Positions 15,653-33,340 of a stretch of DNA of 34,861 nt are shown piece after piece. The DNA comes from an uncultured Steroidobacteraceae bacterium. GTDB lineage: Bacteria; Pseudomonadota; Gammaproteobacteria; Steroidobacterales; Steroidobacteraceae. Numbering within the stretch: position 1 is the first letter of the stretch; each line of letters begins with the position of its first letter. The position numbers and the translations under genes were made by a program. The notes beneath the pieces are model-generated. The model was given only the letters and a program-made list of their open reading frames with translations. It did no database searches and was not told the origin of the DNA. The DNA is taken from contig CAZQYC010000039.1 in the NCBI GenBank assembly GCA_964597495.1, forward strand, positions 1 to 34,861, read 5' to 3'.

Positions 15653-17041
15653 ATGCCCCAGCATCCAAGCGAATCCTTACTTCGACACTTGCAGGCGGGC
15701 GTTGCTTCATCCGTTGAGCTTGAAACCGTGCTTGGGCAGTCCCAATCCACTGTATCGCGCTACTTACGTCAGCTAACGGCAGCGGGTTTGATCATTCGCC
15801 TCGGCAACACTCGGGGTGCGCGCTATGGGTTGCTCAGACCGATCGAAGGCATCGGTGCAAAGTGGCCGCTTCGCCGCATCGATTCTGCTGGCCAACTTCA
15901 TCTACTAGGCACGCTCTGTTCGTTGTATGCCGAACAATTTTATTTCGAGCCAGAGTCTGATGGGTTTGCGTACGATGGAGTTACCCACGGATTACCGTAC
16001 TATCTCCAGGATCAGCGGCCAGCCGGATTTCTTGGGCGCGCCGTTCCGCGTCAGTATCCAGAACTTCAATTGCCGCAACGCGTAGTCGATTGGAACGAAG
16101 ATCACTACCTACGCTATCTCACCCAGCGTGGCTCGGACACGGTCGGCGACCTCATCCTAGGCGATCAGGCGTTCGATCAGTTCCTGATCATGCAAAGGCA
16201 GCGAACGATCGCGAGCGTCAAGGATCGCGAGATCCGATACCCGCAGTTTGTGGCTGAAGTCATGGAGGGTGGTTTGCCGGGATCTTCCGCGCATGGTGAG
16301 CATCCGAAATTCACGGCGTTAATTGAGAGTCCATCGGGGCCAATGCATGTGCTCGTGAAGTTCTCACCGCCTGACCGTACCGCGGTCGGACAGCGATGGT
16401 CAGATCTGCTGATCGCCGAACACATTGCACATGAAGTGCTCGCGGCGGCGGGTCTGCCCGCGACACGCTCGCGCATCGAACGCTATGGTGACCGCACCTA
16501 TCTCGAAGTGGAGCGTTTCGATCGCGCGGGACTCGAAGGGCGAGTAGGGGTCACGTCACTGTTCGCGATTGATGCCGAACAATACGGCAAGCTCGACAAT
16601 TGGGTCGACTCTGCGACGCGGCTTCGTGACGACCGCCGAATTGATCCGACGACCTGCGAGCTTGTTCGCCTGATATCGACCTTCGGCGCACTGATTGCAA
16701 ACACGGACCGGCACTTCGGCAACCTAGCGTTTTACGATGCCTATGATGGTCGTTACTCGTTAGCACCGGTATACGACATGCTGCCCATGCTTTTTGCGCC
16801 AGAACACGATCAGGTGATTGCACGCGTCTTTCAACCACCCGATCCAACCTCACAGACACTGCGAGCATACGGGCGCGCGCGCGCGCTTGCAGAGGAATAC
16901 TGGCGCCGATGCGCCCATGATTCTCGAATCAGCGAGGAGTTTCAAGCTATCTGTGAGAAGTGTGGCGAGACACTCGAGAAGTTGCCTCGCACGGGTGCCT
17001 ATGCCTATCACGAAACTGAGCCGTTTCCGAAGACACAGTAG
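15653..17041 (+). CDS. HipA-family Ser/Thr kinase toxin homologue with a fused N-terminal winged-HTH (YjjJ/HipH-like architecture)
   Basis: The N-terminus LETVLGQSQSTVSRYLRQLTAAGLIIRLGNTRGARYGL is a winged HTH. The C-terminus carries the HipA catalytic signature IANTDRHFGNLAF. An AT-rich upstream region has repeated CTAG and TTTGTTTTTAT motifs (15520-15640). Confidence 0.7.
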   Translation: MPQHPSESLLRHLQAGVASSVELETVLGQSQSTVSRYLRQLTAAGLIIRLGNTRGARYGLLRPIEGIGAKWPLRRIDSAGQLHLLGTLCSLYAEQFYFEPESDGFAYDGVTHGLPYYLQDQRPAGFLGRAVPRQYPELQLPQRVVDWNEDHYLRYLTQRGSDTVGDLILGDQAFDQFLIMQRQRTIASVKDREIRYPQFVAEVMEGGLPGSSAHGEHPKFTALIESPSGPMHVLVKFSPPDRTAVGQRWSDLLIAEHIAHEVLAAAGLPATRSRIERYGDRTYLEVERFDRAGLEGRVGVTSLFAIDAEQYGKLDNWVDSATRLRDDRRIDPTTCELVRLISTFGALIANTDRHFGNLAFYDAYDGRYSLAPVYDMLPMLFAPEHDQVIARVFQPPDPTSQTLRAYGRARALAEEYWRRCAHDSRISEEFQAICEKCGETLEKLPRTGAYAYHETEPFPKTQ

Positions 17042-17678: not shown

Positions 17679-17758
17679 AGTGCTGAGCGGATCGATGGAA
17701 GAAGTGGCCCCACCAATTTGAACAACGGAATGCAGTTCGTTAAGTGTGGCCCCGCGGG

Positions 17759-18586
17759 TTAAGCGGCTCTGGCGAGCAGCTGTGAATCAAAGTACACGGC
17801 ATCGGGTGTGCATCGGTCAAGTGCTTTGTGGGGACGACGCGTGTTGTAGAAGGTGAAGTAGCGAGCCAGATGCACGCGGGCGTCGCTGACGGTGTTGTAG
17901 GCACGTAGATACACCTCCTCATACTTCACCGACTTCCACAAGCGCTCGACGAACACGTTGTCGCGCCAACGACCCTTGCCGTCCATGCTAATGCGAATGC
18001 CGTGAGCCTTGAGGACCGAAGTGAACTCAAGGCTCGTGAACTGGCAACCCTGGTCGGTGTTAAAGATTTCGGGTGTGCTGTACGTCGCTAGCGCCTCGTC
18101 CAACGCTTCGACACAAAAATCGGTGGTGAGCGTATTGGAGAGCCGCCAGGCGAGTACCTTTCGCGTGAACCAGTCGATCACGGCGACCAAGTACACAAAG
18201 CCGCGCGCCATCGGGATATAGGTGATATCGGCGGCCCAGACTTGGTTGGGTCGATCGATCTGAAGCTTCCGCAGCAGGTACGGATAAACGACATGATCGG
18301 GGTGCGGTCGGCTGGTGTTCTTCTTGCGATAAATCGCCTCGATGCCCATCCGTTTCATCAGTGTGGCCACGTGCTTACGGCCCACTGCATGACCCTCCGT
18401 ATTCAGTAAATCGCGCAGCATGCGGCTGCCGGCAAAGGGATAGTCCAAATGCAACTCGTCAATCCGGCGCATCAATTCCAAATCACGTTCCGGCAACGGC
18501 TTGGGTTCGTAGTAAATCGCACCGCGCGATAAACCCACCAATACCGCCTGCCGCACCAACGGCAGACGATGTCCACGATCAATCAT
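17759..18586 (-). CDS. IS3-family transposase OrfB (DDE integrase core), expressed as an OrfAB fusion by -1 frameshifting
   Basis: An rve-type catalytic core (ADITYIP...TDQGCQFTS...). Its frame stays open upstream through the slippery site. Confidence 0.8.
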   Translation of the reverse strand: MIDRGHRLPLVRQAVLVGLSRGAIYYEPKPLPERDLELMRRIDELHLDYPFAGSRMLRDLLNTEGHAVGRKHVATLMKRMGIEAIYRKKNTSRPHPDHVVYPYLLRKLQIDRPNQVWAADITYIPMARGFVYLVAVIDWFTRKVLAWRLSNTLTTDFCVEALDEALATYSTPEIFNTDQGCQFTSLEFTSVLKAHGIRISMDGKGRWRDNVFVERLWKSVKYEEVYLRAYNTVSDARVHLARYFTFYNTRRPHKALDRCTPDAVYFDSQLLARAA

Positions 18587-18885
18587 CGCTTTGCGCTCGG
18601 ATCGCCGATGCGACCGAGCGCGCCTGATAAAAAATCAATCTCCAATGCCTGCTGGCCGATCTTCGCATGAAGTTCTTTGATGTCCGGCTGTAAGGCTTTC
18701 GCACCTTCACCGCCAAACGCTTCCGCTGCTCCTTCCAGCAGTTGCGTCTTCCACTGCGTCACTTGCGTTGGATGGACATCAAAGCGTTCGGCAATCTCAA
18801 TCACTGTCTGTTGCCCTTTGATCGCTTCCAGGGCCACTTTGGCTTTGAACGTCGCTGAATGGTTACGTCTCGATCTCTTACTCAT
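18583..18885 (-). CDS. IS3-family transposase OrfA (HTH)
   Basis: MSKRSRRNHSATFKAKVALEAIKGQQTVIEIAERFDVHPTQVTQWK is typical of IS3 OrfA. Confidence 0.8.
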   Translation of the reverse strand: MSKRSRRNHSATFKAKVALEAIKGQQTVIEIAERFDVHPTQVTQWKTQLLEGAAEAFGGEGAKALQPDIKELHAKIGQQALEIDFLSGALGRIGDPSAKR

Positions 18886-19067
18886 TGCTGCTCCGAATAG
18901 AAGGCGATATCTTCGCCCACAAGAGCAGAGCCGTCACTTATCGTACTGTTCGATAGGTTGGGACCACCTCAGGACGGCGTGATCGAGACCGATCTGTTGA
19001 ATTCGTGCATTCGGATTCGCGGCGAAGTGTCGGGTTCGATGGTACGTGAGGTGGGGGGACTGATGCG

Positions 19068-19403
19068 ATGATGGGTTTTCCCGGTGGCAGTCGGATTTGG
19101 TTAGCGTGTGTGATAACGCGTCCGAAGTCGTTCACAGATCGCCCCATTGTCCGGCAGAAGGTTATCGAAATAGTGGCGCACGGCCGAGGAGGTGATCGTG
19201 GTGTTGGCTGTAATAGTAATTTCCAGATTCGAAGCGCCATACTAATGCATAAGAAAACATGCGTTTTGAATGGGCGTCCCTGGAATGTATTCGTGATAAA
19301 GACGGTACGGGCATATGCTAGATATGAGTGGGCCATAGACCGGGTGTTTACTGGTTGGTGTGACGAAATTGGTAAGGATCTAAGAGATGGGAGTCGAACC
19401 TGA
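19068..19403 (+). pseudogene. Degenerate IS66-family tnpB-like fragment
   Basis: FPGGSRIWLACVITRPKSF resembles the IS66 TnpB N-terminus (LPxGxRIWLAxGxTDMRKGF). The rest has decayed. Together with the 17529 fragment it defines an IS66 remnant split by the IS3 element. Confidence 0.4.
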
Positions 19404-20127
19404 TCCAGTAGCTTTTGAGGAGTTTAAGAAAAAGCAGACGGCAGCGTTTTCCAGGATCGCCTATCGGACGAGAGGAACGCATGGAGCTGACGATCTCATG
19501 TCGGAGGCGTGGCTAATCGCTCTCGAAATCGGTAAACGCAGAGGCTGTCAAATGGATGTCTCCAACTATGTGGAGCAGAATCTGATTCTTGCGTGGCTGT
19601 ACAAGAGGTTTGTCGACTTCGTTGACGGCAAGAATAGAGAAAGTATCGACGACGATGTCTCAGACGGTTTTACTCCTTTGCGTGATCGATTAGCGGCGCC
19701 GGAAGAATCGAATCCGTTGCATGCGTTATTGCTAGTCGACGAAGAGCGTCTCACGTCCCCGGCCAGGAAGGGATTTTCGCAATATTCGGCATACATGATT
19801 CTCCTTGAGCGATGTGAGCTGAGCCTCCTTACGCTTGCCGAATACCTTGCCATATCGTTCTCGACACTTCGAACGCGTATTCAAAGTTCTAATGAGCACG
19901 CTGACTGTCAACCTTCGCTTTTTGACGAGGTGGAGCGAATAGACTCCAATTTTCTCCCCCGATCCCAATGGCTGCGCACTCTCTGGCAACGGTGGCAAGC
20001 CAAATCAGCCATTACGGTCGCATGGACTAATATTCGGAAGCTCATCAGTCGAGAAAATAACGATGTTTCTTCAGCAACCATCATGGATCTCTTCGGCTGC
20101 AATGCGAATTCCGCGCAGAGATTGTGA
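19387..20127 (+). CDS. Hypothetical protein with weak sigma-70/ECF-like region 2 and region 4 similarity
   Basis: DDLMSEAWLIAL...ILAWLYKRFVDF is region-2-like. The C-terminal LSLLTLAEYLAISFSTLRTRI is an HTH (region-4-like). The gene is AT-richer than its surroundings. Confidence 0.3.
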   Translation: MGVEPDPVAFEEFKKKQTAAFSRIAYRTRGTHGADDLMSEAWLIALEIGKRRGCQMDVSNYVEQNLILAWLYKRFVDFVDGKNRESIDDDVSDGFTPLRDRLAAPEESNPLHALLLVDEERLTSPARKGFSQYSAYMILLERCELSLLTLAEYLAISFSTLRTRIQSSNEHADCQPSLFDEVERIDSNFLPRSQWLRTLWQRWQAKSAITVAWTNIRKLISRENNDVSSATIMDLFGCNANSAQRL

Positions 20128-20273
20128 CCAACTCAAATTGAGTATGCTGTAATTGTGCCGTGAATAGGCTGCTCTCGAAGTGGAAAGCACCACAAGTAGC
20201 TGATTTATAAAGATCATAGTGCCCAAGTCGTCCTTCGAACAAGAGTGGAGTTCGAATCTCTTCGGCGCGGCCA
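20125..20273 (+). repeat. Copy A of a ~150-bp imperfect direct repeat. It ends in a tRNA-like T-arm (GGAGTTCGAATCTCT) plus an acceptor 3' strand and CCA, and it lies upstream of jetA.
   Basis: About 80% identical to copy B at 28800-28955, including the conserved core CTGATTTATAAAGATC. No complementary 5' acceptor strand was found, so it is not an intact tRNA. Confidence 0.6.
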
Positions 20274-20563
20274 ATTTCTCAAATGGAGTTCTGGATCGAT
20301 AGCTCAATGCACACACGTAGCATGTACATGCCAAAATAATGTACATCAGTAAGTATTAAATCCGTGTATCTCACTAGCTCAACCATCCTCTGTTCGCGTG
20401 CCTCGTTCAGTGGTTCGCATAAACAGGAGCAAGGATGCTAGAGAAGCAGTCAAGTATCGGAGAGAATCAATGATTGTTAGCCGGTTTTCCAACTATAAGA
20501 TTTCAGACCTACTTTATCGAGCAACCTAGTTGGTTACCTGCGAACGCATAGCTGAACCTAAGC

Positions 20564-22114
20564 ATGGATCACACAAGAATCCAACCCAACGTCGTTGACT
20601 CTGCGGATTTGCTCCGCCATATCACGGCAGACAAAGCGCCGCTCTACCGTAGCATCATGGATGTATTCGCGGCGGCTAAGCGGCAATACCGGCTGCAACT
20701 TCGGCCCGATGAAGTGGCTAGCGAAGCCACCTGGCCAGGGGACACACCCCGCATTGAAGAGATCAATGCCATGCTCACGCAGCTGTCGCAATGGGGCAAC
20801 CTGGAGTCACAGCCAGACACAACACGTGTTTCGACACTCAGCGATTTCTATCGAGCGAGATATCTGTATCGGTTGTCCCATGGCGGTGAAGCGGTCGAAG
20901 CCGGCCTCGCCGTGCTATTGCAGACGTTGCGTCGTCGCGCCGAACTGCAGACCGTTGCGCTCGAGGACATCGCTGGCCGCTTGCTTGCGCTCAAGCAACT
21001 CATCGAAGCCGATACCGATGGCAAGGGGCCCGATGTAGCAAAGTCGCACGAAACTCTGCGCGACCTCGTACGCGTATTTGAGGACCTCGCCGAAAACGCG
21101 CAATCCTTCATGGCCAGTGTTGCTCGCAGCCTGGAACTCCAGCAAGCGGACGCGAACACAATCGTCAACTACAAGCGCCGCCTGATCGACTATCTGGAGC
21201 GATTCATCGGCGACCTGGTCCGCCGATCCGACAGCATCGCTCGATTGATCCAGTATCTGACGAGCTATGTCGATGGAATTTTTTTGCAGATCGCGGAGCG
21301 CGAAGCCAGGGATGCTGCGCCCGGCGATGCGAGCGATCAGCAGGATCAGAAGATCGAACGATGGAGTGTTTGGACAGAACGTTGGAAAGGGCTGCGCGGG
21401 TGGTTTCTTTCCACTGGTGCAGAGCCGCCTCAAGCGGAGCTGCTGAGAGCGCGGGCCCGAGCAGCAATTCCGCTGCTGCTTGGCGCGATAGCGACGTTGA
21501 ACGAGCGTCGCAGCGGTCGCAGCGATCGCTCGGCGGATTTCCGCGTTCTGGCGCAGTGGTTCGCCGCCTGTGGCACCGATGGAGAGGCGCATCGTATGGC
21601 GCGTGCTGCGTTCGCACTCCAACCAGCTCGGCATTTCTCGCTCAATCCGCATGCAGATGGCGATCTTCCCGCCAGCACACCGTGGGCTGAAGCACCGCCG
21701 CTGCAAATAAATCCTCGACTACGCGAGTATGGTGAGGCAGCACCTCGTGGTCCGTTACCACGCGTCAGGGATAGGAGCGCGGAACGTGAATTGATGGCGC
21801 AGCAATTAGCTGAAGAGTCTCGGCAAGTGCAAGCCGCGCGGCAGCGCCTTGCAACGGGGCGTCCAGCTCGTTTGTCAGAAATCGGCGAACTCGACAAGCA
21901 TGCATTTCAACTCTTTCTGGGCTTGTTAGGCGAAGCGCTTTCGGACCAGCTCAATCCCGATCAGCCGGTGGAGCTGCAAACGGGTGACGGACTCCTTCGA
22001 GTACGTCTGGAACCCTTGCCCGCTGAGAGCCGAGCCACCATTGAAACGCCCGCCGGCACGTTCTCGGGAAGAGATCACCTGCTGACCATCACCGAGATCC
22101 ACGCAACCGAATGA
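20564..22114 (+). CDS. jetA: Wadjet JetA (MksF/kleisin-like, DUF3375-type)
   Basis: First gene of a four-gene operon with the size pattern 516/411/1387/421 aa and ATGA-overlapped junctions. Identified mainly by operon context with JetC and JetD. Confidence 0.55.
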   Translation: MDHTRIQPNVVDSADLLRHITADKAPLYRSIMDVFAAAKRQYRLQLRPDEVASEATWPGDTPRIEEINAMLTQLSQWGNLESQPDTTRVSTLSDFYRARYLYRLSHGGEAVEAGLAVLLQTLRRRAELQTVALEDIAGRLLALKQLIEADTDGKGPDVAKSHETLRDLVRVFEDLAENAQSFMASVARSLELQQADANTIVNYKRRLIDYLERFIGDLVRRSDSIARLIQYLTSYVDGIFLQIAEREARDAAPGDASDQQDQKIERWSVWTERWKGLRGWFLSTGAEPPQAELLRARARAAIPLLLGAIATLNERRSGRSDRSADFRVLAQWFAACGTDGEAHRMARAAFALQPARHFSLNPHADGDLPASTPWAEAPPLQINPRLREYGEAAPRGPLPRVRDRSAERELMAQQLAEESRQVQAARQRLATGRPARLSEIGELDKHAFQLFLGLLGEALSDQLNPDQPVELQTGDGLLRVRLEPLPAESRATIETPAGTFSGRDHLLTITEIHATE

Positions 22115-23346
22115 GCACCCGGCGATCACTGCAGGACAGCCGACGGATCGGCGATCTCCAAAAGTCCATGCAACAGGATGAATTCCGTAAGGCGTTGCGC
22201 GCATTGCTGATGACGCCGCTGATGTCACCCGAGCATGAAGATTTTGCAGCAGTGCGCCGGCAGGCCGAGCGGGTGCGCGATTGGTTCGCACGCGAGACCG
22301 GCTGGCCCTTATACATCGATCGTGAAGGTGCGCGCTTGTTCAAGCGACCCGCCGACTTGACGGACGATACCCGCGGCCTGCCTGAATACAATCGCTATCG
22401 CTATGTGCTGCTTTGCCTGTGCTGCGCCGTGCTTGAACGCGCCGATCCTCAGATCACGTTGAGGGTGCTCGGTGAACGTGTGATGCAGCTGGCGGCTGAT
22501 CCTACGCTCGCCGCATACGGATACGAATTTACTTTCGGGACGGCTGTCGAACGGCGTGCTCTCGTAGCTGTGTGCAAGACGCTGCTGGAACAAGGAGTGT
22601 TGCAGCGAGTGGCGGGTGACGAGGAAAATTTCGTGCACGAGAGCGGGTGGACGCAGTCGGACGCGCTCTACGATGTGCAACGGCGATTATTGGCTGGCAT
22701 GCTCGCCGCCATTCGCGGACCCTCGACTTGGCGCGCTGAAGAAGCACCGGCAGATTTCGAATCTCGCTTGCGATCTCTGATTGCCGAACATATCACAGAC
22801 AGCGATCAGGGTCGTCGCGACGCCCTGCGCCACTATCTTGCGCGCCGCCTATTGGACGATCCCGTACTTTATACCTCTTCACTGAGCGAGGAAGCTCAAG
22901 CGTACTTCATCAATCAGCGCGGTCCGATGGCAAGCCGGCTCAGCGATGCGCTAGGACTCATCGCCGAGCAGCGCGCCGAGGGTTTGGCGCTCACCGACGA
23001 AGCGGGGCAACTCACTGATGTGACTATGCCGGCCGAAGGGACGGAGGCGCACGCCACATTGCTCGTCGCGGAATTTCTCGCGCAACGTTTGCGCTCGAGT
23101 TCATTGCCTACGGTAACGACAATGGACGCGATTGCGGGTCACTTGCGTAACGCAAGCGCGCAGTACGGCAAATACTGGCGCAAATCCGCACGCGCACCCG
23201 GTGCGGAGAAAGAGCTTGCCGGTATCGCCGTCGACAGGCTTCGCAAGTTGCGACTGGTTGCGCTCGAACAGAATCGCATCACACCGTTGCCCGCCATTGC
23301 GCGCTTCGCGGTGGGACAAACCGATATCCGTGCCACAGATTCATGA
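22111..23346 (+). CDS. jetB: Wadjet JetB (MksE-like, DUF4194-type)
   Basis: Start ATG overlaps the jetA stop (ATGA at 22111-22114). Position and size fit JetB. Confidence 0.55.
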   Translation: MSTRRSLQDSRRIGDLQKSMQQDEFRKALRALLMTPLMSPEHEDFAAVRRQAERVRDWFARETGWPLYIDREGARLFKRPADLTDDTRGLPEYNRYRYVLLCLCCAVLERADPQITLRVLGERVMQLAADPTLAAYGYEFTFGTAVERRALVAVCKTLLEQGVLQRVAGDEENFVHESGWTQSDALYDVQRRLLAGMLAAIRGPSTWRAEEAPADFESRLRSLIAEHITDSDQGRRDALRHYLARRLLDDPVLYTSSLSEEAQAYFINQRGPMASRLSDALGLIAEQRAEGLALTDEAGQLTDVTMPAEGTEAHATLLVAEFLAQRLRSSSLPTVTTMDAIAGHLRNASAQYGKYWRKSARAPGAEKELAGIAVDRLRKLRLVALEQNRITPLPAIARFAVGQTDIRATDS

Positions 23347-26300
23347 GCGACACTCCGCCAACTCCACCACCTGCGTTGCCCCGACCGACCCGAGAACGGT
23401 GGCAGCCATTGCGGCTAGGCGTGGTCGAAGTCTTCCACTACGACAGCGAGGAGTTTTGGTTTCACGATGGTCATTTGCTGTTACGCGGCAACAACGGCAC
23501 TGGCAAGTCCAAGGTGCTTTCGCTAACGCTGCCATTTTTGTTCGACGCGCAGTTGCGTCCTTCGCGCATCGAGCCCGACGGCGATGCCAGCAAGCGAATG
23601 TCGTGGAACCTGCTGATGAACAGTTATCCGCGCCGCATGGGCTACACCTGGATTGAATTCGGTCGGCGTCTCAGCGACGGCTCGGTGCGTTATTTGACGC
23701 TGGGTGCTGGTCTTTTGGCGGTGGATGGCAAGCCGCAAGTCGATAGCTGGTACTTCATTCTTGACGGAGGCGACCACCAGACCGGTGTGCGCATCGGCCA
23801 GGATTTATGGCTCACCGGTACGCAGCGCGTCGTGCTCACACGCGACCGCCTGCGGGAACGCATCGAAGATCCGGGCTGGGGCCAGGTATTCGAGTTCAGC
23901 GGCCAGTACCGTCGGGCCGTCGATGAGCGGCTGTTCCATTTGGGCAGCAAACGTTACGACGCGCTTATGGATACGCTGATCCAGTTGCGACAACCGCAGC
24001 TATCGAAAAAGCCGGACGAGGCCGGTTTGTCTCAGGCTCTGAGCGACGCACTGCCGCCCATTCCATCCGAGCTACTGACGGATGTGGCCCAAGCGCTCAA
24101 CCAACTGGAGGAGGATCGCAATCGCTTAGAAGAGCTGCGGCAGCTGGAGCGCGCTATCCGGCAGTTCGAGAGCCGCTATCGAGTGTACGCTGGCATGTTG
24201 ACCCGCCGACAAGCTCGCGAGCTGCGTCAAGCGCAGACGGGTTTCGACAACGCCAGCGAGGAGCGCAACAAGGCGCAGACCGAACTCGAGAGAACGCAGC
24301 AAGCCGAACAGGCCGGCATCGCCGCTCACGAGCAGGCTCGGCAAACGCTGGCCGCTGCGCGTGAGCATCTGGAGACTCTGCAGAGCGATCCCGCCAATCA
24401 AGACGCAAATCGCCTGAATCAGGCGGAACGAGACGCGTTGGAGGCAAACATCGCCGTCGCGTCCGTGGCCAAGCAGTGCGAAGAAGCGCGCCAGAAACTC
24501 ACAAGAGAAGAAGAACGCAGCCGGAAAGCGGCCGAGCGTGCCGACAACGCACAAGCGGAACTTCTATCCGTTCGGAAGCAATGCTGGAATGAAGCAGAAG
24601 CGGCGAGGGCGCTTGGCTCCTTCGAGTCCAATCGGCTCGCTGCGGCGACACCGGATGAGCTCGCGACGCTAGCGCGATCGGAGCTTGCAGCGGCGGCGGA
24701 AGAACTGCGTCTGGCTGGCGCGAAACGGCGCCAGGACATCAGGCACTTGGAACAGCGCCATGCCGCGGCGGACAAGAAATTGTCGGCGCTTGAATCGCTG
24801 CAAGTGACGCAGCGCGAGCGCCAGGCAGAGCTGGAGGACGCGCTGAGAAAGCGCACTGCCGCGGATGGCAATGCAGAGCTGGCCGCGAGTAGCCTTATCG
24901 AGGCATGGGTCGCACACATCGGTGCGCTGGGCCAGCTGCGCCTGGATGAGGTAGCGGTAATGCCGCAGCTCACAGCGTGGACCGCTCGCCCTGAGGGATT
25001 GAATCCGGCCAATTCGGCCCTTGGCGAAGCCTATCGGCAGGTCTCGCTTGATCATGCACGACGCGAGTCGTTGCTCAACGCAGAACAAACAGCGCAGGAG
25101 CATCGCCGCGCCGAGTTAATCGCCGAACGCGATCGGCTCGTTGCTGGTCATGATGCATTTCCACCGGCGAGGCCGACACGCTTGCCTGGTATTCGCGAGA
25201 AACGAGACGGCGCCCCATTCTGGCAACTGGTGGATTTCCAATCTCATCTCGAGCCAGCCGAACGCGCTGGCATTGAGGCTGCGCTAGAGGCGTGTGGCTT
25301 GCTGGACGCATGGCTCGCTCCGCATGGCACGTTGATCGCTCCCGACGGCACCGCATTACTGGATAGTCACTGGATTCGGCGTCCCGTCACGGCTACGACG
25401 AACCTGGCGAGCGCGTTGTGCCCAGCCGTGCCGGACGGCATCAGCATCGACGTTGCATTGATCACTGCACTACTGAGCAGCGTCGCGTATGGAGACGATG
25501 ACATGATGTCGGCCGAATCTTGGATCTCGAGAGACGGACGTTATCGACTTGGAGCCCTAGCCGGCGCGTGGCAAAAGAGCGAAGCGGTCTATGTCGGCCA
25601 CTCGGCTCGCGAGAAGGCGCGTAAGCGCCGCCTTGATGAGATTTCTCTACTAATCGAGGAGCTGAACGTCGCTGCCGCTGATATCGAGCGGCGCTTTGCC
25701 GAGCTGCACGCGGACCGCGAGCGCAGCAAGCAGGAGCTTGACGCTGCACCGTCTGATGTAACGCTTCGCGAAACAGTTCTCACAGCCGCAAGCGCCGGAC
25801 AGGAAGTCGCGAGGGCCTACCAGCGCTTCGAGCAAATCGAGACTCAATGCCGCGTTGCCGAGGATGAGCTGCAGGCGGCACGGGAAACAGTGCAGAAGGA
25901 TGCTGCAGATTTGCAACTCCCAAGCGAACCGTCGGCGCTGATATCGGTCAGCGATGCGGTCGATCGATTCAATGCCAGTTACCAGCATTTGCTATCAGCC
26001 GCACGTGAATGGCGCACCGCTCACCCCGAATATGTGGCGCAGCACGAGCGCGAAATCGAAGCTCGCCATGGGCTCTCGCAATTCGAGAGCACTAGAGCTG
26101 AGACAGTTGAGCGCGCGGAAAGAGCCCGCGTGCGCTTCGAAACGTTGCGCAACGCCGTCGGTCAGCAAGTGGAGCTGCTTCGGCAACAGCTGACAATTGC
26201 GCGGACGAAAGTGGATACAGCCGAGGATCACCTCGACAAGCAACAACTGTCCTTGAATGAGGCCCGCGAGCAACGTGTCATTGCTCATGCTCGGGCCGAA

Positions 26301-27506
26301 ACAGCCGAAGCAGCACTGACCGAGCGTGTCGAGGTTCGTGGCAGGGCGGTCGATAAATTGCAGCGCTTCACCGCCAGTGGCCTGCTTTCAGCCGCATTGC
26401 CTCAAATGGAGTTGCCGGATTTGGCAACGACCTGGACCATCGATCCAGCACTGACGCTGGCCCGCCGTACCGAGCAGGCGCTTACGCACATCAACGACGA
26501 CGAGGCTCATTGGAATCGCGTGCAACATCAGATCGGCGAAGATCTGACTGAGCTGCTTCGTTCGCTGAGCGCTCTGGGACATCACGCCAGCTCCGAGCCC
26601 AACGATTGGGGCTTTACTGTTCATATCCAGTATCAAAACCGCTCAGAACGTCCAGACACGTTAGCCAACGCTCTGGCGTACGATATCGCACAGCGGAGCG
26701 AGCTTCTTTCTGCCAAGGAGCGAGAGGTATTGGAGAACCACCTGCAGGCCGAGATAGCGGCTGAGATTCAGCGCTTGATGCGAGCTGCCGATCAGCAGGT
26801 CGGCACGATCAACGAGGAACTACATAAGCGCCCGACGACTACAGGTGTGCGCTATCGGTTGCTATGGCAGCCGCTATCTGCAGAGGACGGTGCTCCGGCG
26901 GGATTGGAGATCGCACGGGAGCGGTTGCTTCACACCAGCTCCGATCTGTGGTCGACAGAAGACCGCAGAGTGGTCGGTACGATGTTGCAACAACAGATCG
27001 TAGCGGAGCGTGCCCGAGCCGATGCGGAAACCAGTGGCACCGGCGGTAGTCTGCTCGATCAACTAGCCCGTGCTTTGGACTATCGTCGCTGGCACCGCTT
27101 TCGCGTGCAGCGACATCAGGATGGTCAATGGCGCAAACTGTCGGGACCAGCTTCCAGCGGTGAACGCGCGCTGGGCCTGACCGTGCCATTGTTCGCCGCC
27201 ATCGCGAGTTTCTACGGCCGAGGCGGCAGCCCACTCGCGCCAAGACTAATGCTGCTCGATGAAGCCTTCGCAGGCATCGACGATAAGGCCCGCGCCCACT
27301 GCATGGGGTTGATTCGTGAATTCGACCTTGACTTCGTGATCACGAGCGAACGCGAGTGGGCCTGCTATGCCGAGCTGCCTGGTGTATCAATCTGCCAATT
27401 GCAGCGCCGCGAGGGTGTGGACGCGGTGTTCGTTTCCCGCTGGACATGGGACGGGCGCGCCAAGCGACCAGAGCGAGATCCCGATCGAAGATTTCCGCCC
27501 ACATGA
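23343..27506 (+). CDS. jetC: Wadjet JetC (SMC-like ABC ATPase, MksB homologue)
   Basis: N-terminal LLLRGNNGTGKSKVLSLTLPFLFDAQLRP is Walker A with the conserved JetC N-terminus. It has very long Ala/Glu/Arg-rich coiled-coil arms, a C-terminal signature-like SGPASSGERALGLTV, and Walker B LMLLDEAF. Confidence 0.75.
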   Translation: MSDTPPTPPPALPRPTRERWQPLRLGVVEVFHYDSEEFWFHDGHLLLRGNNGTGKSKVLSLTLPFLFDAQLRPSRIEPDGDASKRMSWNLLMNSYPRRMGYTWIEFGRRLSDGSVRYLTLGAGLLAVDGKPQVDSWYFILDGGDHQTGVRIGQDLWLTGTQRVVLTRDRLRERIEDPGWGQVFEFSGQYRRAVDERLFHLGSKRYDALMDTLIQLRQPQLSKKPDEAGLSQALSDALPPIPSELLTDVAQALNQLEEDRNRLEELRQLERAIRQFESRYRVYAGMLTRRQARELRQAQTGFDNASEERNKAQTELERTQQAEQAGIAAHEQARQTLAAAREHLETLQSDPANQDANRLNQAERDALEANIAVASVAKQCEEARQKLTREEERSRKAAERADNAQAELLSVRKQCWNEAEAARALGSFESNRLAAATPDELATLARSELAAAAEELRLAGAKRRQDIRHLEQRHAAADKKLSALESLQVTQRERQAELEDALRKRTAADGNAELAASSLIEAWVAHIGALGQLRLDEVAVMPQLTAWTARPEGLNPANSALGEAYRQVSLDHARRESLLNAEQTAQEHRRAELIAERDRLVAGHDAFPPARPTRLPGIREKRDGAPFWQLVDFQSHLEPAERAGIEAALEACGLLDAWLAPHGTLIAPDGTALLDSHWIRRPVTATTNLASALCPAVPDGISIDVALITALLSSVAYGDDDMMSAESWISRDGRYRLGALAGAWQKSEAVYVGHSAREKARKRRLDEISLLIEELNVAAADIERRFAELHADRERSKQELDAAPSDVTLRETVLTAASAGQEVARAYQRFEQIETQCRVAEDELQAARETVQKDAADLQLPSEPSALISVSDAVDRFNASYQHLLSAAREWRTAHPEYVAQHEREIEARHGLSQFESTRAETVERAERARVRFETLRNAVGQQVELLRQQLTIARTKVDTAEDHLDKQQLSLNEAREQRVIAHARAETAEAALTERVEVRGRAVDKLQRFTASGLLSAALPQMELPDLATTWTIDPALTLARRTEQALTHINDDEAHWNRVQHQIGEDLTELLRSLSALGHHASSEPNDWGFTVHIQYQNRSERPDTLANALAYDIAQRSELLSAKEREVLENHLQAEIAAEIQRLMRAADQQVGTINEELHKRPTTTGVRYRLLWQPLSAEDGAPAGLEIARERLLHTSSDLWSTEDRRVVGTMLQQQIVAERARADAETSGTGGSLLDQLARALDYRRWHRFRVQRHQDGQWRKLSGPASSGERALGLTVPLFAAIASFYGRGGSPLAPRLMLLDEAFAGIDDKARAHCMGLIREFDLDFVITSEREWACYAELPGVSICQLQRREGVDAVFVSRWTWDGRAKRPERDPDRRFPPT

Positions 27507-28768
27507 CACGGGATTTACAGCAACCTGATGTTCGACTGGTGCGCCTCTTCGGCGGTAGTGATCTTGTACGGCTACGACGGCGACTAAGACGTCACTTCGA
27601 GCGACACGGCGGAGGCCTGAGCGGGTCGCTGCAGCTAAGTAATCTGATACCAATTGAGCAAGAAGTACTTGCTCAGTTGATGGGGCGCCCACCCCGTTCC
27701 GCGCGATCTATTCGTATACACCTTGATCAGCTGGACGCTTCACTGCGAGGTGCCGGAATCGCGGACTCGCTGCGCGCGGCATTGGAGATGTTGGATGGTC
27801 CTATCGAGGACCGTGCAGCTCTTCGGCAAGCTCGCCTGCTGCGATGGACGCAGGTGATCGATGCCGAGCGCTGGCATCCCATACTCCGTCTGTGGCTGCA
27901 AACGCCAACAACGGTCACGTCGCTCAAGCGCCTTGCTCGCGGTGACCCCTCCGCTGCTGAGCAATTACTTGAGCAAGCGAGTCGAGTGATGCGGCGACTT
28001 CCATCGGCGGGTATCACCAGAGCGCAGCTGGCTGCAGAAACGCTCGGCAATGCACATTCACTCGACAATGGATATCCGACATCAACGATTGTTCTCTCTG
28101 CACTGAGGCAGGAAAGCAGTCCAGACGATGCGCCTGCGACTGATGGACGGAACAGCGAGAGCGCGAAGGCTTCCGAGCGTGCTAGGGAAACCTGGGCCCG
28201 CGTAGGCGTACTTGTAAACGAGCTGGCGCGGCCCGCGCTGTGCTTGAATTTGCCAATGCCATTTCCAACGTTGATCGGTGGCTCATCGGGGGAACCACAA
28301 TATTTCTCACTGCGCTTTCTACTCCGCAAGAAACCTGTGTGGCAGTTTGATGGCATGCCGATTTACGTCTGCGAGAACCCCAACGTAATCGCGATTGCAG
28401 CGGATCAACTGGGCTCTCGCTGTGCGCCTCTGATCTGCACCGAAGGCATGCCTGCAGCCGCCCAGCGGGCATTGCTGACACAGTTGACTCGCGCCGGAGC
28501 CCGATTGCTCTACCACGGCGACTTTGACTGGCCAGGCGTACGCATAGCCAACTTTGTCATGCGCATTTGGCCCGCATTGCCTTGGCGCTTCACCACTGCT
28601 GATTACGAGGCGGCTGTTTCGCGCACAACACACAGCGTGCACGATTTGAGCGATATTCCTGTTAGCGCATCCTGGGATGATTCCTTGACGGAAGCGATGA
28701 AAATCCGTGGCTGCGCTATCGCTGAAGAAGCCGTTGTCTCTGAGTTGCTAAAAGACTTGGCACTCTAG
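27503..28768 (+). CDS. jetD: Wadjet JetD (MksG-like, Toprim/DUF2220-type nuclease subunit)
   Basis: Start ATG overlaps the jetC stop (ATGA at 27503-27506). The C-terminal Toprim-like acidic motifs are LICTEGMP and LLYHGDFDWPG. Confidence 0.65.
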   Translation: MTRDLQQPDVRLVRLFGGSDLVRLRRRLRRHFERHGGGLSGSLQLSNLIPIEQEVLAQLMGRPPRSARSIRIHLDQLDASLRGAGIADSLRAALEMLDGPIEDRAALRQARLLRWTQVIDAERWHPILRLWLQTPTTVTSLKRLARGDPSAAEQLLEQASRVMRRLPSAGITRAQLAAETLGNAHSLDNGYPTSTIVLSALRQESSPDDAPATDGRNSESAKASERARETWARVGVLVNELARPALCLNLPMPFPTLIGGSSGEPQYFSLRFLLRKKPVWQFDGMPIYVCENPNVIAIAADQLGSRCAPLICTEGMPAAAQRALLTQLTRAGARLLYHGDFDWPGVRIANFVMRIWPALPWRFTTADYEAAVSRTTHSVHDLSDIPVSASWDDSLTEAMKIRGCAIAEEAVVSELLKDLAL

Positions 28769-28799
28769 ACAGTAGTTATAGTAGTTAATGTCGTGATCT

Positions 28800-28955
28800 G
28801 TGCCGCGTTCAAATTGACTGTGACTAATTTGTGCCTTAGATAGGCTTTTTTAGGGGGTAGCAAGCGCCGCAAGTGACTGATTTATAAAGATCCGTAATAG
28901 CCAAATCGTCCTACGAACCATGAGGTCGGGAGTTCGAATCTCTCCGGGCGCGCCA
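28800..28955 (+). repeat. Copy B of the ~150-bp direct repeat, with a tRNA-like T-arm (GGGAGTTCGAATCTCTCC), acceptor 3' strand CGGGCGC, discriminator G and CCA. It lies immediately downstream of jetD.
   Basis: Aligned base-by-base to copy A. The T-stem is better preserved than in A. No matching 5' acceptor strand was found. Confidence 0.6.
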
Positions 28956-29237
28956 TTAAATCAACCAGTTAGCCCTAAGCAACCTACTGCTGATTGCCGG
29001 TTGTGACAGATTGAGCTGCTTCACCGGCTTACCTTGGTAACTGAACACGTGCGTCGGATGTCGTCCGAGTTGGGCACGAATGAGCTTCAAGGCTTCCTGC
29101 ATTGAGCGGAACAGGAATCGCCTTTCGAACCAGAGGGTCAGTGAAGCAAAGATCACCGCTCGTTTTATCCGCTCGCCAAAGTACTGAGCCCCACAGTTGC
29201 CTGCCGGGCTCAGGTTAGGTTGATGTTCATCGCGCGT

Positions 29238-30775: not shown

Positions 30776-30852
30776 TGGTCGCATTGGAGGGAATCGAACC
30801 CTCGACCTAGCAGTTGTTGGCTGCCTGCTCTATCCCACTGAGCTACATTGCG
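30776..30852 (-). tRNA. tRNA-like gene with the non-canonical anticodon loop CCAACAA (apparent anticodon AAC, C33), 77 nt including CCA
   Basis: Good cloverleaf: D-arm GCTCAGTGGGATAGAGC, T-arm GAGGGTTCGATTCCCTC, and an acceptor with 6 of 7 pairs. A34 and C33 are unusual, so it may be a pseudo-tRNA or an unusual tRNA. Confidence 0.4.
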
Positions 30853-31054
30853 TGGTGATTGAGGCACGACTCGCGCGGTACGCACAGCGACAGAGTCGCA
30901 GCGCGCCAGCGTGGCTTTGGAACCACGGCCGCTGACACGAAATCGCAAACCTCGATCTCGGTACCGATCGGCGCTCGTGCAATATGGACGAGCGCCGATC
31001 AGAATTCATAATCAAATTTGTACGCGGTGGGCGGAGCCTCTTCTCCGCCCACGT

Positions 31055-31627
31055 TCATCCATTTGCATGCAATCGCGAAGTCTTCGGCACGCCGAGAAGC
31101 AAGAACTCCATTTGATCGGCGAGAATTTTTCGATTCGCAAGAATGAAGACTTCATATCGATTCGGCACATACGGCACGTAGTGCAGCTTCATGCCGGCGG
31201 CTTCCGGCGTGCGGTCTGCCTTACCGTTATTGCATGCCTTGCAAGCCGCGACGAGATTCATCCACGAATCCGCGCCGCCCTTCGAGCGCGGTATCACATG
31301 TTCCATATCGAGTTCCTCGAATCGAAATCGCTGCGCGCAGTACGCGCAAATATATCGATCTCGAGCAAGCAGAATTTCCTTGGTGAGCGTCGGCACGTGA
31401 TCGAAGTGCCGGACGATGAAGTCCTTGCCCTTGATCGCGATGATCGAGCTTGCGCGGATGCACGACTGCAGGCCCGACGAACGCTGCGTGCCGCCGCGAA
31501 GCGTGAACTCGTGCGTACCCGCGGCCCACGCGATCATGTCGGTCGCGTAGTAGTGCGCAGCAGTGCGAACGTTAATCCACCGGTGCGGAGCGCCGGCGAC
31601 GTCGAGCGCGAGAATAGGCGGACTCAT
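31055..31627 (-). CDS. HNH endonuclease (His-Me finger), embedded in the tRNA array
   Basis: CAYCAQRF...EHVIPRSKGG...NLVAACKACNNGK is an HNH motif with a CxxC...CxxC zinc site. RBS GGAGAAG. Located 45 nt downstream of tRNA-Met on the same strand. Followed by a 10-bp-stem hairpin (31027-31052) plus a U-rich tract, and a 13-bp-stem hairpin (30966-31000). Confidence 0.8.
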   Translation of the reverse strand: MSPPILALDVAGAPHRWINVRTAAHYYATDMIAWAAGTHEFTLRGGTQRSSGLQSCIRASSIIAIKGKDFIVRHFDHVPTLTKEILLARDRYICAYCAQRFRFEELDMEHVIPRSKGGADSWMNLVAACKACNNGKADRTPEAAGMKLHYVPYVPNRYEVFILANRKILADQMEFLLLGVPKTSRLHANG

Positions 31628-31671
31628 CGAACTTCTCCTCTAGGTTGATCAACAGCGCTTGCTGCTGGTGG

Positions 31672-31748
31672 GTGGTCGTGCAGGATGGATTTGAACCATC
31701 GATAACCGGCTTATGAGGCCGGCGCGTTAGGCCGCTTCGCCACTGCAC
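31672..31748 (-). tRNA. tRNA-Met/CAT (elongator or Ile-lysidine type)
   Basis: Anticodon arm CCGGC-CTCATAA-GCCGG, T-arm GATGGTTCAAATCCATC, acceptor CGTGCAG/CTGCACG, discriminator A and CCA encoded. The 1-72 pair is formed, so it is not initiator-like. Confidence 0.8.
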
Positions 31749-31878
31749 GCATTCAAAGCGGAGGATCGGACTCCATGTCACGACCACCGCGTGCCGAACG
31801 AAAAGCGCGGTTTTCATTCGGCACCGACCACGATGCGAAGACGCATCGTGGCGAGCGTACATCCATGTACGCGGATTT

Positions 31879-31955
31879 TTGGTGGCCGCTGCTGGACTTG
31901 AACCAGCAGCCTCTCGATTATCGGTCGAGCGCTCTTGCCAAGTGAGCTAAGCGGC
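31879..31955 (-). tRNA. tRNA-Ile(GAT)
   Basis: Perfect acceptor GGCCGCT/AGCGGCC. Anticodon arm CTCGA-CCGATAA-TCGAG. T-arm GCTGGTTCAAGTCCAGC. CCA encoded. Confidence 0.85.
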
Positions 31956-32044
31956 CAAACGGTTAGTTGCGTGCAAGAACGTACACACGCCACGATGCGT
32001 CATCGCATCGTGGGCGGTGTCAAAAAAACACGCTTCTTGTTTGA

Positions 32045-32081
32045 CAAGCGGTCGTCGTGACACGGAGTCCGATCGACCGCT
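32045..32081 (-). other. Conserved-loop stem-loop motif, copy 1: 9-bp perfect stem AAGCGGTCG/CGACCGCTT around the loop TCGTGACACGGAGTCCGAT. It sits just 3' of the tRNA-Glu-like gene.
   Basis: Copy 2 at 32862-32894 has the same 19-nt loop with 1 substitution but a different, still complementary stem (compensatory changes). Confidence 0.55.
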
Positions 32082-32086
32082 TGAAT

Positions 32087-32162
32087 GTGGCGTTCCTGAG
32101 GGGATTCGAACTCCGGTTATCTCCGTGAGAAGAAGACGTCCTTTCCAACTAGACGATGAGAG
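32087..32162 (-). pseudogene. tRNA-Glu(CTC)-like pseudogene (acceptor stem does not pair)
   Basis: Glu-like D-arm TCGTCTAGTTGGAAAGGAC, anticodon arm TCTTC-TTCTCAC-GGAGA, and a T-arm with one mismatch. The 5' strand GCTCTCA cannot pair with the 3' strand CAGGAAC. Confidence 0.45.
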
Positions 32163-32172
32163 CAAGAAGCGA

Positions 32173-32259
32173 GTGGTGGAGGGTGCAGGATTCGAACCTG
32201 CGGAGATCGAGTCTCTCCCGGATTTAAGTCGAGTGCGTCAGATCACTCGTCCAACCCTC
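32173..32259 (-). tRNA. Class II tRNA-Leu(TAA)-like, 87 nt, with a weak D-arm and an A31-C39 mismatch. Possibly degenerate.
   Basis: Perfect acceptor GGAGGGT/ACCCTCC, T-arm GCAGGTTCGAATCCTGC, anticodon loop CTTAAAT, variable-arm hairpin GGAGA-GACTCGA-TCTCC. Confidence 0.5.
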
Positions 32260-32505
32260 CAGTAATCTAGATCTTTATGGCGGCGGGTGAAGGATGGCAC
32301 TTTATATGACAGTGCCGATGACACGTCCTTGTTACCGCGCCCGGCCAGCACATCCGTGTGCTGGCGTTCGCGCGGTTCAAATGCACGTTAAGTGCATTTG
32401 AAAATGCATCCGCGCTCACCCATCTGTTTTCGAAACAGCGCCACTTGGCCTCGATGGGAACCGACCATGGAAAGAAATTTGATCGCGCGGTGCGATCAAA
32501 CTGAA

Positions 32506-32582
32506 TTGGTGCGGCGTGCAGGATTTGAACCCGCGACCTCTCGGTTCGAAGCCGAGAACTCTGATCCACTGAGCTAATGCCG
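32506..32582 (-). tRNA. tRNA-Arg(TCG)
   Basis: Anticodon arm CTCGG-CTTCGAA-CCGAG, T-arm GCGGGTTCAAATCCTGC, acceptor with one mismatch. CCA encoded. Confidence 0.7.
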
Positions 32583-32604
32583 CGTGTTGTGCTCAAGCGA
32601 TGAA

Positions 32605-32682
32605 GTGGCGCGATGTGAAGGAGTTGAACCTTCGACCTCCGGCTTCGTAAACCGGCGCTCTAATCCAGCTGAGCTAACATCG
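32605..32682 (-). tRNA. tRNA-Arg(ACG)
   Basis: Perfect cloverleaf. Anticodon arm CCGGT-TTACGAA-GCCGG, T-arm GAAGGTTCAACTCCTTC. CCA encoded. Confidence 0.85.
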
Positions 32683-32687
32683 CATGA

Positions 32688-32762
32688 CTGGTGCACGCAG
32701 GAGGGCTCGAACCTCCGCCCCTTGCTTTGTAAGAGCGACGCTCGGCCGCTGAGCTATACGTG
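32688..32762 (-). tRNA. tRNA-Val(TAC)
   Basis: Anticodon loop CTTACAA, with one C-A mismatch in the anticodon stem. T-arm GGAGGTTCGAGCCCTCC. The acceptor has a G-U pair. It lies 5 nt from tRNA-Arg(ACG). Confidence 0.75.
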
Positions 32763-32861
32763 CATTGTGGATCACATCTGAACAAGACCCATGGATGGGT
32801 CTCGCCTGCGCTGTCTTCCGTGCAGGCGGCGATGAGCGAAAGTCACGTCTTTTGATCATCG

Positions 32862-32894
32862 CGCGGTTGTCGTGACAGGGAGTCCGATCAACTG
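32862..32894 (-). other. Conserved-loop stem-loop motif, copy 2: stem GCGGTTG/CAACTGC around the loop TCGTGACAGGGAGTCCGAT. It sits just 3' of tRNA-Asp.
   Basis: See copy 1. In both copies the motif ends ~6-8 nt before the encoded CCA (plus strand) of the upstream tRNA. Confidence 0.55.
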
Positions 32895-32901
32895 CATCAA
32901 T

Positions 32902-32977
32902 ATGGCGCCACGGATGGGGTTCGAACCCACGACGTCTCGCTAGACAGGCGAGCACTCTGGCCTCTGAGTTACCGCGG
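32902..32977 (-). tRNA. tRNA-Asp(GTC)
   Basis: Anticodon arm CTCGC-CTGTCTA-GCGAG, T-arm GTGGGTTCGAACCCCAT, discriminator G and CCA encoded. Confidence 0.85.
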
Positions 32978-33140
32978 CAAAATTCTTGTTGGATCACGCG
33001 TCAGGATCGCGCCTTGTCGTCCATGACCGGCGCGCAGTTGCGCCAGCTTTCGCTGTCCAAAATCGTTCCTACGATTTTGTCGAACCTAAATTCTTGCAGT
33101 CAAAGTGCGATGTCCTGCCAGTTAGACGGCGCGTGAACGA

Positions 33141-33215
33141 ATGGTGGGCGCGGAGGGGATCGAACCCTCGCCGTCCGATTAAAAGCCGGATGCTCTAACC
33201 CTTGAGCTACACGCC
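33141..33215 (-). tRNA. tRNA-Lys(TTT)
   Basis: Anticodon arm TCCGG-CTTTTAA-TCGGA, T-arm GAGGGTTCGATCCCCTC, acceptor GGGCGTG/CGCGCCC. CCA encoded. Confidence 0.85.
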
Positions 33216-33231
33216 CTCAACGAATGAAGAA

Positions 33232-33316: not shown

Positions 33317-33340
33317 CACAGTAGTAACGAAATGGTTCTT

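Follow-up and report, generated by a model that had tools for sequence, protein, structure and literature searches.

A predicted type II Wadjet operon between tRNA-Arg-derived direct repeats in an uncultured Steroidobacteraceae bacterium

Introduction

Type II Wadjet has been reconstituted from Neobacillus vireti and its structure solved by Roisne-Hamelin, Liu & Gruber (bioRxiv 10.1101/2025.03.10.642339). The PDB entries 9QE0 and 9QE1 contain the JetABC complex of this system, in which JetB (nvJetB) is a tandem KITE protein of 388 amino acids. In vitro the system cuts circles up to a size of at least 26.7 kb, in an assay based on chromosome excision its restriction weakens only from 50 kb upward, and JetD is not interchangeable, as the JetD of one Wadjet type fails with the JetABC of the other (bioRxiv 10.1101/2025.03.10.642339). 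The concepts of the cis-mobilizable element (CIME) and of accretion, by which integrated elements come to lie in tandem, are treated in PMC5704250 (reviewing Pavlovic et al. 2004; Bellanger et al. 2011). The classic examples of CIMEs come from streptococci. Tandem elements separated only by partial tRNAs have also been reported (bioRxiv 10.1101/2020.12.28.424599). Here we analyze a jetABCD operon and the two imperfect direct repeats that flank it on contig CAZQYC010000039.1 (assembly GCA_964597495.1) of an uncultured Steroidobacteraceae bacterium; we refer to the whole contig of 34,861 nucleotides as the window. A preliminary description, made from the sequence alone, had read this locus as a Wadjet anti-plasmid cassette with an unusually long JetC. 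The main value of our analysis is a correction: the operon encodes a standard type II system, and the flanking repeats are probably explained as integration scars derived from tRNA-Arg.

Assignment of the operon to type II Wadjet

The four genes are co-oriented on the plus strand in the order jetA (20564-22114, 516 amino acids), jetB (22111-23346, 411 amino acids), jetC (23343-27506, 1387 amino acids) and jetD (27503-28768, 421 amino acids), and the same gene order is found in eight related loci. ATGA start/stop overlaps at 22111, 23343 and 27503, as first described, can be read directly from the sequence, and the jet genes are translationally coupled. The open reading frame (ORF) of jetD called mechanically opens at a GTG at 27356. 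We favor the ATG at 27503 as the start, because homologues of 409-431 amino acids cover 97-100% of the 421-residue protein counted from there.

We compared the four proteins with the Pfam, PADLOC and NCBIfam model sets and searched PDB chains with phmmer. JetA, the kleisin-like subunit, matches Pfam DUF2397 with 484 bits (cut-off 28.5), PADLOC JetA2 with 667 bits and NCBIfam TIGR02677 with 554 bits (cut-off 166). JetB, the KITE subunit, matches DUF2398 with 325 bits, JetB2 with 459 bits and TIGR02678 with 389 bits (cut-off 125). The SMC-like ATPase JetC aligns to positions 3-1357 of the 1361 in JetC2 with 1434 bits and to positions 1-1356 of TIGR02680 with 1328 bits (cut-off 463); its Pfam match is SbcC_Walker_B. 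JetD, the Toprim nuclease subunit, reaches 435 bits with JetD2 and 408 bits with TIGR02679 (cut-off 196), and both DUF3323 and DUF2399 are matched. Among PDB chains, JetC finds the JetC chain 9qe0_A (1371 amino acids) with E = 2e-68 and JetA finds the JetA chain 9qe0_E with E = 1e-27; JetB and JetD have no phmmer match to any PDB chain. Because all four proteins exceed the curated cut-offs of the JetA2, JetB2, JetC2 and JetD2 models by far, the operon can almost certainly be assigned to type II Wadjet.

This agrees with the Wadjet identity proposed before and changes the families involved. The DUF3375, DUF4194 and DUF2220 searches suggested in the preliminary description return no match; the proteins belong instead to DUF2397, DUF2398, TIGR02680 and DUF3323 plus DUF2399. 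A type I assignment was rejected, as Pfam and PADLOC scans gave no JetA1 or JetB1 match and left DUF3375, DUF4194 and DUF2220/DUF3322 unmatched. Residual similarity to type I is weak and confined to the C-terminal head of JetC (JetC1, E = 4e-13) and the Toprim region of JetD (JetD1, E = 4e-5). The length of JetC, which had been taken as unusual, is the norm for type II: neither the 1387-residue JetC nor the 411-residue JetB is peculiar, because the PADLOC JetC2 model has 1361 positions, the JetC of 9QE0 has 1371 residues and nvJetB has 388. The length of JetB fits the tandem-KITE JetB of type II.

We located the sequence motifs that had been noted in JetC and JetD. JetC has a Walker A motif (GNNGTGKS) at residue 49 and a Walker B motif (LMLLDE) at residue 1302, long coiled coils, and a signature-like SGPASSGE at residue 1267. 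JetD carries acidic Toprim-type motifs, CENP at residue 290 and YHGDFDWPG at residue 337, whose residues we assign putative catalytic roles by analogy. The catalytic motifs are intact and the operon is uninterrupted. Anti-plasmid activity of this copy is predicted from family membership and intact motifs. The window operon is an intact yet ordinary type II Wadjet, and its apparent oddities, the long JetC and the large JetB, are hallmarks of the type. By homology with the N. vireti type II and Escherichia coli type I systems, JetA, JetB and JetC would form a dimeric loop-extruding motor. Topology would let this motor tell small circles from other DNA, whereupon it would allow the Toprim nuclease JetD to cut them, resulting in plasmid restriction.

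The GC content of the operon (0.600) exceeds that of the left flank (0.533) and the right flank (0.562). It is preceded on the plus strand by an AT-rich spacer (20283-20563, GC 0.438), presumed to be the promoter region of the operon; a promoter scan of its plus strand did not find a consensus sigma-70 promoter. Only the final ~50 nucleotides of the spacer are conserved, and with one related locus alone (L012).

Structure of the flanking direct repeats

The operon is tightly bracketed by imperfect direct repeats at 20125-20290 and 28802-28971, leaving ~290 nucleotides on the left and ~35 nucleotides after the jetD stop on the right. The repeats first described as ~150 bp long are real and measure ~165-170 bp each. 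They align by blastn with 73.6% identity over 144 nucleotides (E = 1e-15), share 123 identical positions over 168/171 nucleotides in a strict global alignment, and have a mean column identity of 79% in MAFFT. The longest exact blocks common to both are CTGATTTATAAAGATC (16 nucleotides) and GGAGTTCGAATCTCT (15 nucleotides, the T-loop block). Even at three mismatches, the 16-mer CTGATTTATAAAGATC is found nowhere in the window but in the two repeats, compared with 0.11 sites expected.

Alignment with tRNA-Arg genes reveals that the last 42-46 nucleotides of both repeats are the 3' half of a tRNA-Arg, a feature overlooked before. The right repeat consists of an arm (X2, 28802-28909, plus strand) followed by a tRNA-Arg(ACG) 3' half (28910-28955, plus strand), which runs from the anticodon loop to the CCA end and lacks the 5' half. 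Its parts are the anticodon loop CTACGAA, the variable loop GAGGTCG, the T-arm GGGAG-TTCGAAT-CTCTC, the 3' strand of the acceptor stem and CCA. The left repeat has the same layout, with a non-coding arm of ~100 nucleotides (X1, 20125-20231, plus strand) and a degenerate tRNA-Arg 3' half (20232-20273, plus strand) in which the anticodon-loop-like CTTCGAA, a 4-nucleotide deletion and the T-arm GGAGTTCGAATCTCT are followed by a terminal ...GGCCA. We obtained the same boundary independently when the right repeat served as blastn query for PLSDB plasmids and INPHARED phages: every match begins at 28911 and ends at the CCA or slightly past it, those matches that are annotated are tRNA-Arg genes, and the ~115 nucleotides upstream remain unmatched. 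The arm sequence has no match in plasmids, phages, viral contigs or 15 related loci, its sole match in metagenomes is a single contig (L005), and the arms belong to no Rfam family.

Each arm contains a site resembling the consensus of integration host factor (IHF), at 20193-20205 on the minus strand in the left arm (AATCAGCTACTTG) and at 28870-28882 on the minus strand in the right arm (AATCAGTCACTTG). A further IHF-consensus-like site, AATCAACCAGTTA, lies on the plus strand directly after the right CCA (28959-28971). The IHF-type consensus WATCARNNNNTTR has only four matches across the window, three of them in the repeats; the two arm sites occupy homologous positions and are hence not independent of each other. 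Equivalent sites are present in L005 and in the related loci L006 and L008, and the site behind the CCA recurs with the same position and sequence type after the tRNA-Arg of L008 and after a tRNA-Arg fragment in L006. An arm followed by a tRNA 3' half is the layout of the distal junction (P arm, core and flank) that remains when an element targets the 3' part of a tRNA gene for integration; the role of the arm itself is inferred.

Other identities for the repeats were tried and rejected. ARAGORN at default settings and Rfam (gathering threshold and E ≤ 10) find no intact tRNA in them, and relaxed ARAGORN calls are inconsistent. The nearest hits to a tmRNA or another known RNA family are a 5.6-bit tmRNA T-arm and an 18-bit GP20-b match on the opposite strand, and on neither strand do the repeats fold better than shuffled sequences. 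The arm was also considered as a promoter of the operon, and its hexamers fail the scan criteria. An ORF overlapping the left repeat, which we checked for a hidden recombinase, has no Pfam match.

Related operons and their island settings

The nearest operons come from metagenomes: L006 and L008 share 85% nucleotide identity with the window (84.5% for L008). Other relatives share 76-83% (L012-L015), 78% (L009) and 77% (L010 and Peristeroidobacter soli, L001). Homology between the window and its relatives spans the region from the start of jetA (with at most 50 nucleotides upstream, in L012) to the stop of jetD, and the flanks are unrelated. Relatives carry the operon without the repeats of the window, yet they do so in variable mobile-element contexts rather than in a conserved core, so that the refuting case named in the preliminary description, a repeat-free operon in a conserved core setting, does not arise. 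The horizontal acquisition proposed earlier is accordingly strengthened by the several unrelated mobile-element contexts of the operon elsewhere, and the repeats would be consistent with it as tRNA-derived attachment (att)-type junctions.

In L008, an intact tRNA-Arg(TCG) at 2077-2153 is followed by an island of ~10 kb that contains an unannotated ORF of 97 amino acids, jetABCD and a PIN toxin gene. The island ends in a 52-nucleotide direct repeat (51/52 identical) of the tRNA 3' half, and it opens at the very anticodon-loop position where tRNA similarity begins in the window repeats. No integrase is found between the tRNA-Arg and this repeat. In L006, a tRNA-Arg fragment lies downstream of the operon and is followed by 590 nucleotides that are 84% identical to the post-tRNA sequence of L008; the same left-end module is present upstream of the L006 jetA. 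Because the module is copied in both places, upstream of jetA and after the tRNA-Arg fragment, we consider L006 to be a tandem array whose islands belong to one family. A hidden recombinase was sought in the small ORFs that the islands of L006 and L008 contain, and none of these ORFs has a Pfam match.

The left-end module of ~590 nucleotides (L008 2154-2760; L006 1-383 and 11660-12183) is 84% identical between the two metagenomes. It includes the 97-residue ORF, which has no Pfam match. The module may serve as an att arm, or it may be a gene for recombination directionality or regulation that has so far escaped recognition.

The operon in L013 and L014 (76-82% nucleotide identity) is part of an island at a tRNA-Thr(TGT) gene that also contains P4-type integrases with Arm-DNA-bind_3 and Phage_integrase domains, AlpA and a homologue of the window gene ORF246 (see below). 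Two integrase genes, 57% identical, lie in tandem beside the tRNA-Thr (L013 5956-8473, L014 1099-3616), the first of them split into pieces of 122 and 264 amino acids. Within the split gene, ARAGORN also reports an opposite-strand tRNA-Tyr (L013 7006-7080) that is probably spurious.

L005, the only outside relative of the window arm, is a metagenome contig of 1.4 kb. Several blocks, including the IHF-like site, are conserved in register with the window and precede a tRNA-Lys 3' half and a terminator. The homology is weak, with an arm-only nhmmer E value of 0.055.

Some relatives have jetA and/or jetC called in two pieces (L006 685-2235 and 3551-7637; L012 4097-8268), with JetA split into 426 and 80 residues and JetC into 738 and 639 or 445 and 952 residues. 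This suggests frameshifts, in decaying copies or from assembly errors. PIN-domain toxin genes are located directly beside the operon, downstream of jetD, in L006, L007, L008 and the P0017 contig, and a PIN-Phd toxin-antitoxin pair lies between ORF246 and jetA in L010 and L011; the window has no PIN gene. In several loci the PIN toxins are paired with an antitoxin (PhdYeFM or a FitA-like ribbon-helix-helix protein), and these modules may stabilise the islands.

Origin of the cassette

Between the repeats we find jetABCD only, with no integrase, excisionase or transfer genes. It is likely that the repeats are decayed att junctions, and that tandem integration of islands targeting tRNA-Arg has left a CIME-like relic that lacks an integrase. 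In this scheme, the operon would be the sole cargo of an integrase-less segment of 8.7 kb, whose ends would be two diverged att-type junctions, each composed of a ~100-nucleotide arm with an IHF-like site and a tRNA-Arg 3' half. Related tRNA-Arg-targeting islands would have accreted by site-specific integration in tandem and then decayed to a unit that kept its att sites and lost its recombinase. The left repeat looks like the right end of a further element, the recombinase of which is absent from the contig, and the DNA to its left (ORF246, an insertion sequence of the IS3 family and a HipA-like kinase gene) may be the remnant of a neighboring or formerly fused island.

We favor the att-type reading because the tRNA-Arg 3' half is found both by alignment and, independently, by blastn, with matches that start at the anticodon loop; because the L008 repeat starts at this same position, L006 contains tandem islands and the integrases of L013 and L014 lie at tRNA-Thr; and because three of the four IHF-like matches in the window cluster in the repeats. 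Also in its favor, homology to the relatives ends at the operon ends, and the GC content of the operon is 0.60 against 0.53-0.56 in the flanks.

Several points weigh against this reading. Neither target nor enzyme is seen: the 34.9-kb contig contains no intact plus-strand tRNA-Arg (ARAGORN) and no integrase domain or remnant, and tblastn with P4-type integrase and AlpA probes gives nothing anywhere in the window. With an identity of ~70-79%, the repeats are unlike those of a fresh integration (98% in L008), and the left tRNA half has suffered a deletion of 4 nucleotides. The arm has one weak outside relative, L005, and differs from the arms of L008 and L006, and the IHF sites in the repeats are candidates defined by pattern match. 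The contig has no close relative in the collections searched, its best flank homologues being 57-74% identical; exact look-ups of JetA, JetC, JetD, the SPFH protein and ORF246 gave no near-identical relative. Finally, ORF246 lies outside the repeats here and inside single Wadjet islands elsewhere, which could mean that the left repeat is a relic from within an island and no true boundary.

This last point leads to an alternative that we regard as possible and somewhat doubtful, in which the ancestral unit was a composite island of at least ORF246 and jetABCD, and the left repeat is either an att site that persisted inside this island or a fragment acquired from another element by recombination, and does not bound a discrete cassette. 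ORF246 (19387-20127, plus strand) abuts the left repeat outside the repeat-bounded segment and belongs to a rare family, with 17 homologues in 5.8 billion proteins. Members of the family are found within ~1 kb of type II Wadjet in two independent island types: in L010 (homologue at 3053-3700) and L011, order and orientation are as in the window with the PIN-Phd pair in place of the left repeat, and in L012-L015 (L013 10001-10687) the homologue is inside an island with an integrase. A HipA_C fragment upstream in L010 parallels the HipA-like gene upstream in the window. We conclude from the tie of ORF246 to type II Wadjet within single islands elsewhere that the ancestral island may have been larger than the repeat-bounded segment. 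ORF246 does not, however, follow Wadjet strictly. In L016 its homologue (465-1274) neighbors phage structural genes and no Wadjet was called in the 11 kb retrieved, which points to a general mobile-element gene, and L001, L008 and L009 have the operon without ORF246. A larger unit is moreover a variant of the accretion model, which itself predicts the fusion of islands once an internal att site decays, and it therefore overlaps with the explanation by decayed att junctions.

The L016 context likewise led us to rule out ORF246 as a fifth Wadjet gene, and we read it as a gene of the mobile-element backbone. It has no Pfam domain. Signals that resemble extracytoplasmic function (ECF) sigma factors are weak (NCBIfam SigW, E = 0.003; best Foldseek hit Mycobacterium tuberculosis SigL, a non-significant E = 0.25), and ORF246 is possibly, on this weak evidence, a divergent ECF-sigma-like regulator.

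It is improbable that the repeats are paralogous, decayed tRNA-Arg pseudogenes that arose by local duplication or turnover of a tRNA array, with the operon having arrived by another route such as homologous recombination. Such an origin would account for the divergence of the copies and the degeneracy of one of them, an array of 16 tRNA genes does lie 1.8 kb to the right, and nhmmer weakly links the 3' part of the repeats to array tRNAs. Yet both copies lack the tRNA 5' half and their similarity starts at the anticodon loop, as in the attL/attR repeat of L008. The repeats also lie on the strand opposite to the array, differ from its tRNA-Arg genes in the acceptor and T-arm, and closely bracket both the operon and the GC shift. 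It is highly improbable that the arm plus tRNA half is a working gene for a small RNA, or a tRNA-like regulatory element, that occurs twice and has no link to mobility. A cloverleaf-like fold with a GCGCC/GGCGC closing stem and a CCA end can be drawn for the right copy, and a weak -35/-10-like pair can be read in the arm, but the left copy does not preserve this stem, fold energies compared with shuffled controls give z = +0.92 and -0.54 (plus strand), Rfam has no match, ARAGORN makes its discordant calls at very relaxed thresholds only, and the promoter-like hexamers do not pass the scan.

Neighboring DNA in the window

Upstream of ORF246, an IS3-family element of ~1.2 kb occupies ~17740-18940 on the minus strand. 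Its orfA (18583-18885) and orfB (17759-18586) are both open, and over ~1.2 kb it is homologous to annotated IS3 and ISKpn11-like elements. Judging from these ORFs and this homology, it is apparently complete. The preliminary description placed the cassette between insertion sequence debris and a tRNA array; the array is borne out by 16 genes to the right, and the debris is better described as this element. A composite transposon was rejected, as this single insertion sequence lies outside the repeats and none is found to the right. We also rejected a plasmid origin: megablast against PLSDB gave only short matches of ~77% inside jetC of Ralstonia megaplasmids.

Further upstream, an ORF (15653-17041, plus strand) encodes a protein of 462 amino acids, in which an ArsR/MarR-like winged helix-turn-helix domain at the N terminus is fused to a kinase domain of the HipA_C family. 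The protein is possibly a HipBA-like toxin module in a single chain. The HipA_C fragment in L010 occupies a comparable position upstream of its ORF246 homologue. At 6976-7557 on the minus strand, an ORF of 193 amino acids has no Pfam domain and matches phrog_35913, a phage family of unknown function, with E = 3e-33. This is a hint of phage-derived DNA in the left part of the contig as well.

To the right of the cassette follows an SPFH protein gene and then, on the opposite strand, the tRNA array (30776-34453, minus strand), with 16 genes called by ARAGORN and 14 by Rfam at the gathering score. Two array tRNAs have four-base 'anticodons' (34031-34104, gtaa; 34215-34314, cctt, 100 nucleotides long), and a tRNA-Glu(CTC)-like sequence at ~32089-32164 appears at a relaxed threshold only. 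A housekeeping-type gene of the contig has its best named relative in a Steroidobacteraceae metagenome-assembled genome, with ~70% identity.

Implications for the spread of type II Wadjet

Type II Wadjet, defence systems on tRNA islands, integrase-less att-flanked remnants and tandem accretion are all known already. What the window and its relatives would add is a concrete route by which type II Wadjet spreads in soil Gammaproteobacteria and in lineages related to them, with small cargo units residing at tRNA-Arg and tRNA-Thr hotspots. These cargo units often adjoin toxin-antitoxin modules.

A wider question is whether a defence that destroys small circles can coexist with an island whose own excised form is such a circle. 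We consider it quite improbable, if worth stating, that the type II Wadjet operons of this clade are minimal integrase-less att-flanked cassettes that neighbors move in cis or in trans, with loss of the recombinase selected by self-targeting. Such loss would be favored because the excised island circle of 8-10 kb lies within Wadjet's own substrate range. If true, an anti-plasmid system that senses topology would be in inherent conflict with the circular intermediate of the very island that carries it. The three integrase-less loci (the window, L006 and L008) are suggestive in that they are compatible with this conflict, and they are not evidence for it.

Comparison with known systems

We compared the window with the systems that it most resembles. 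The JET-II system of N. vireti LMG 21834 has the same jetA-jetB-jetC-jetD order, is matched by the same models (TIGR02677, TIGR02678, TIGR02680 and TIGR02679) and shares the long JetC (1371 residues, 1387 here) and the large JetB (388 residues, 411 here). It differs in its host, a member of the Bacillota rather than an uncultured gammaproteobacterium, and the sequences are distant. Type I Wadjet and MksBEFG (E. coli GF4-3 JET, Pseudomonas aeruginosa JetABCD, Corynebacterium glutamicum MksBEFG) are machines of the same kind, which combine an SMC-like ATPase, a kleisin, a KITE subunit and a Toprim nuclease against circular DNA. In the window, the JetC coiled coil is longer than in type I, and JetA and JetB fall outside DUF3375 and DUF4194.

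Among mobile elements, islands with P4-type integrases at tRNA genes are represented by L013 and L014, which carry the Wadjet operon as cargo. The tycheposon islands of Prochlorococcus resemble the window in that partial tRNA copies part neighboring elements and degenerate remnants accumulate at a tRNA hotspot. In the window, by comparison, an integrase, an excisionase and a replication module are all absent. CIMEs differ from the window in that its repeats are diverged (~70-79%), with no intact tRNA at either end and no partner integrative and conjugative or integrative and mobilizable element on the contig. They agree with it in their att-type direct repeats from the 3' end of a target gene, in having no integrase or transfer genes and in their position beside mobile-element remnants, and the tandem arrangement that accretion produces is directly visible in the relative L006.

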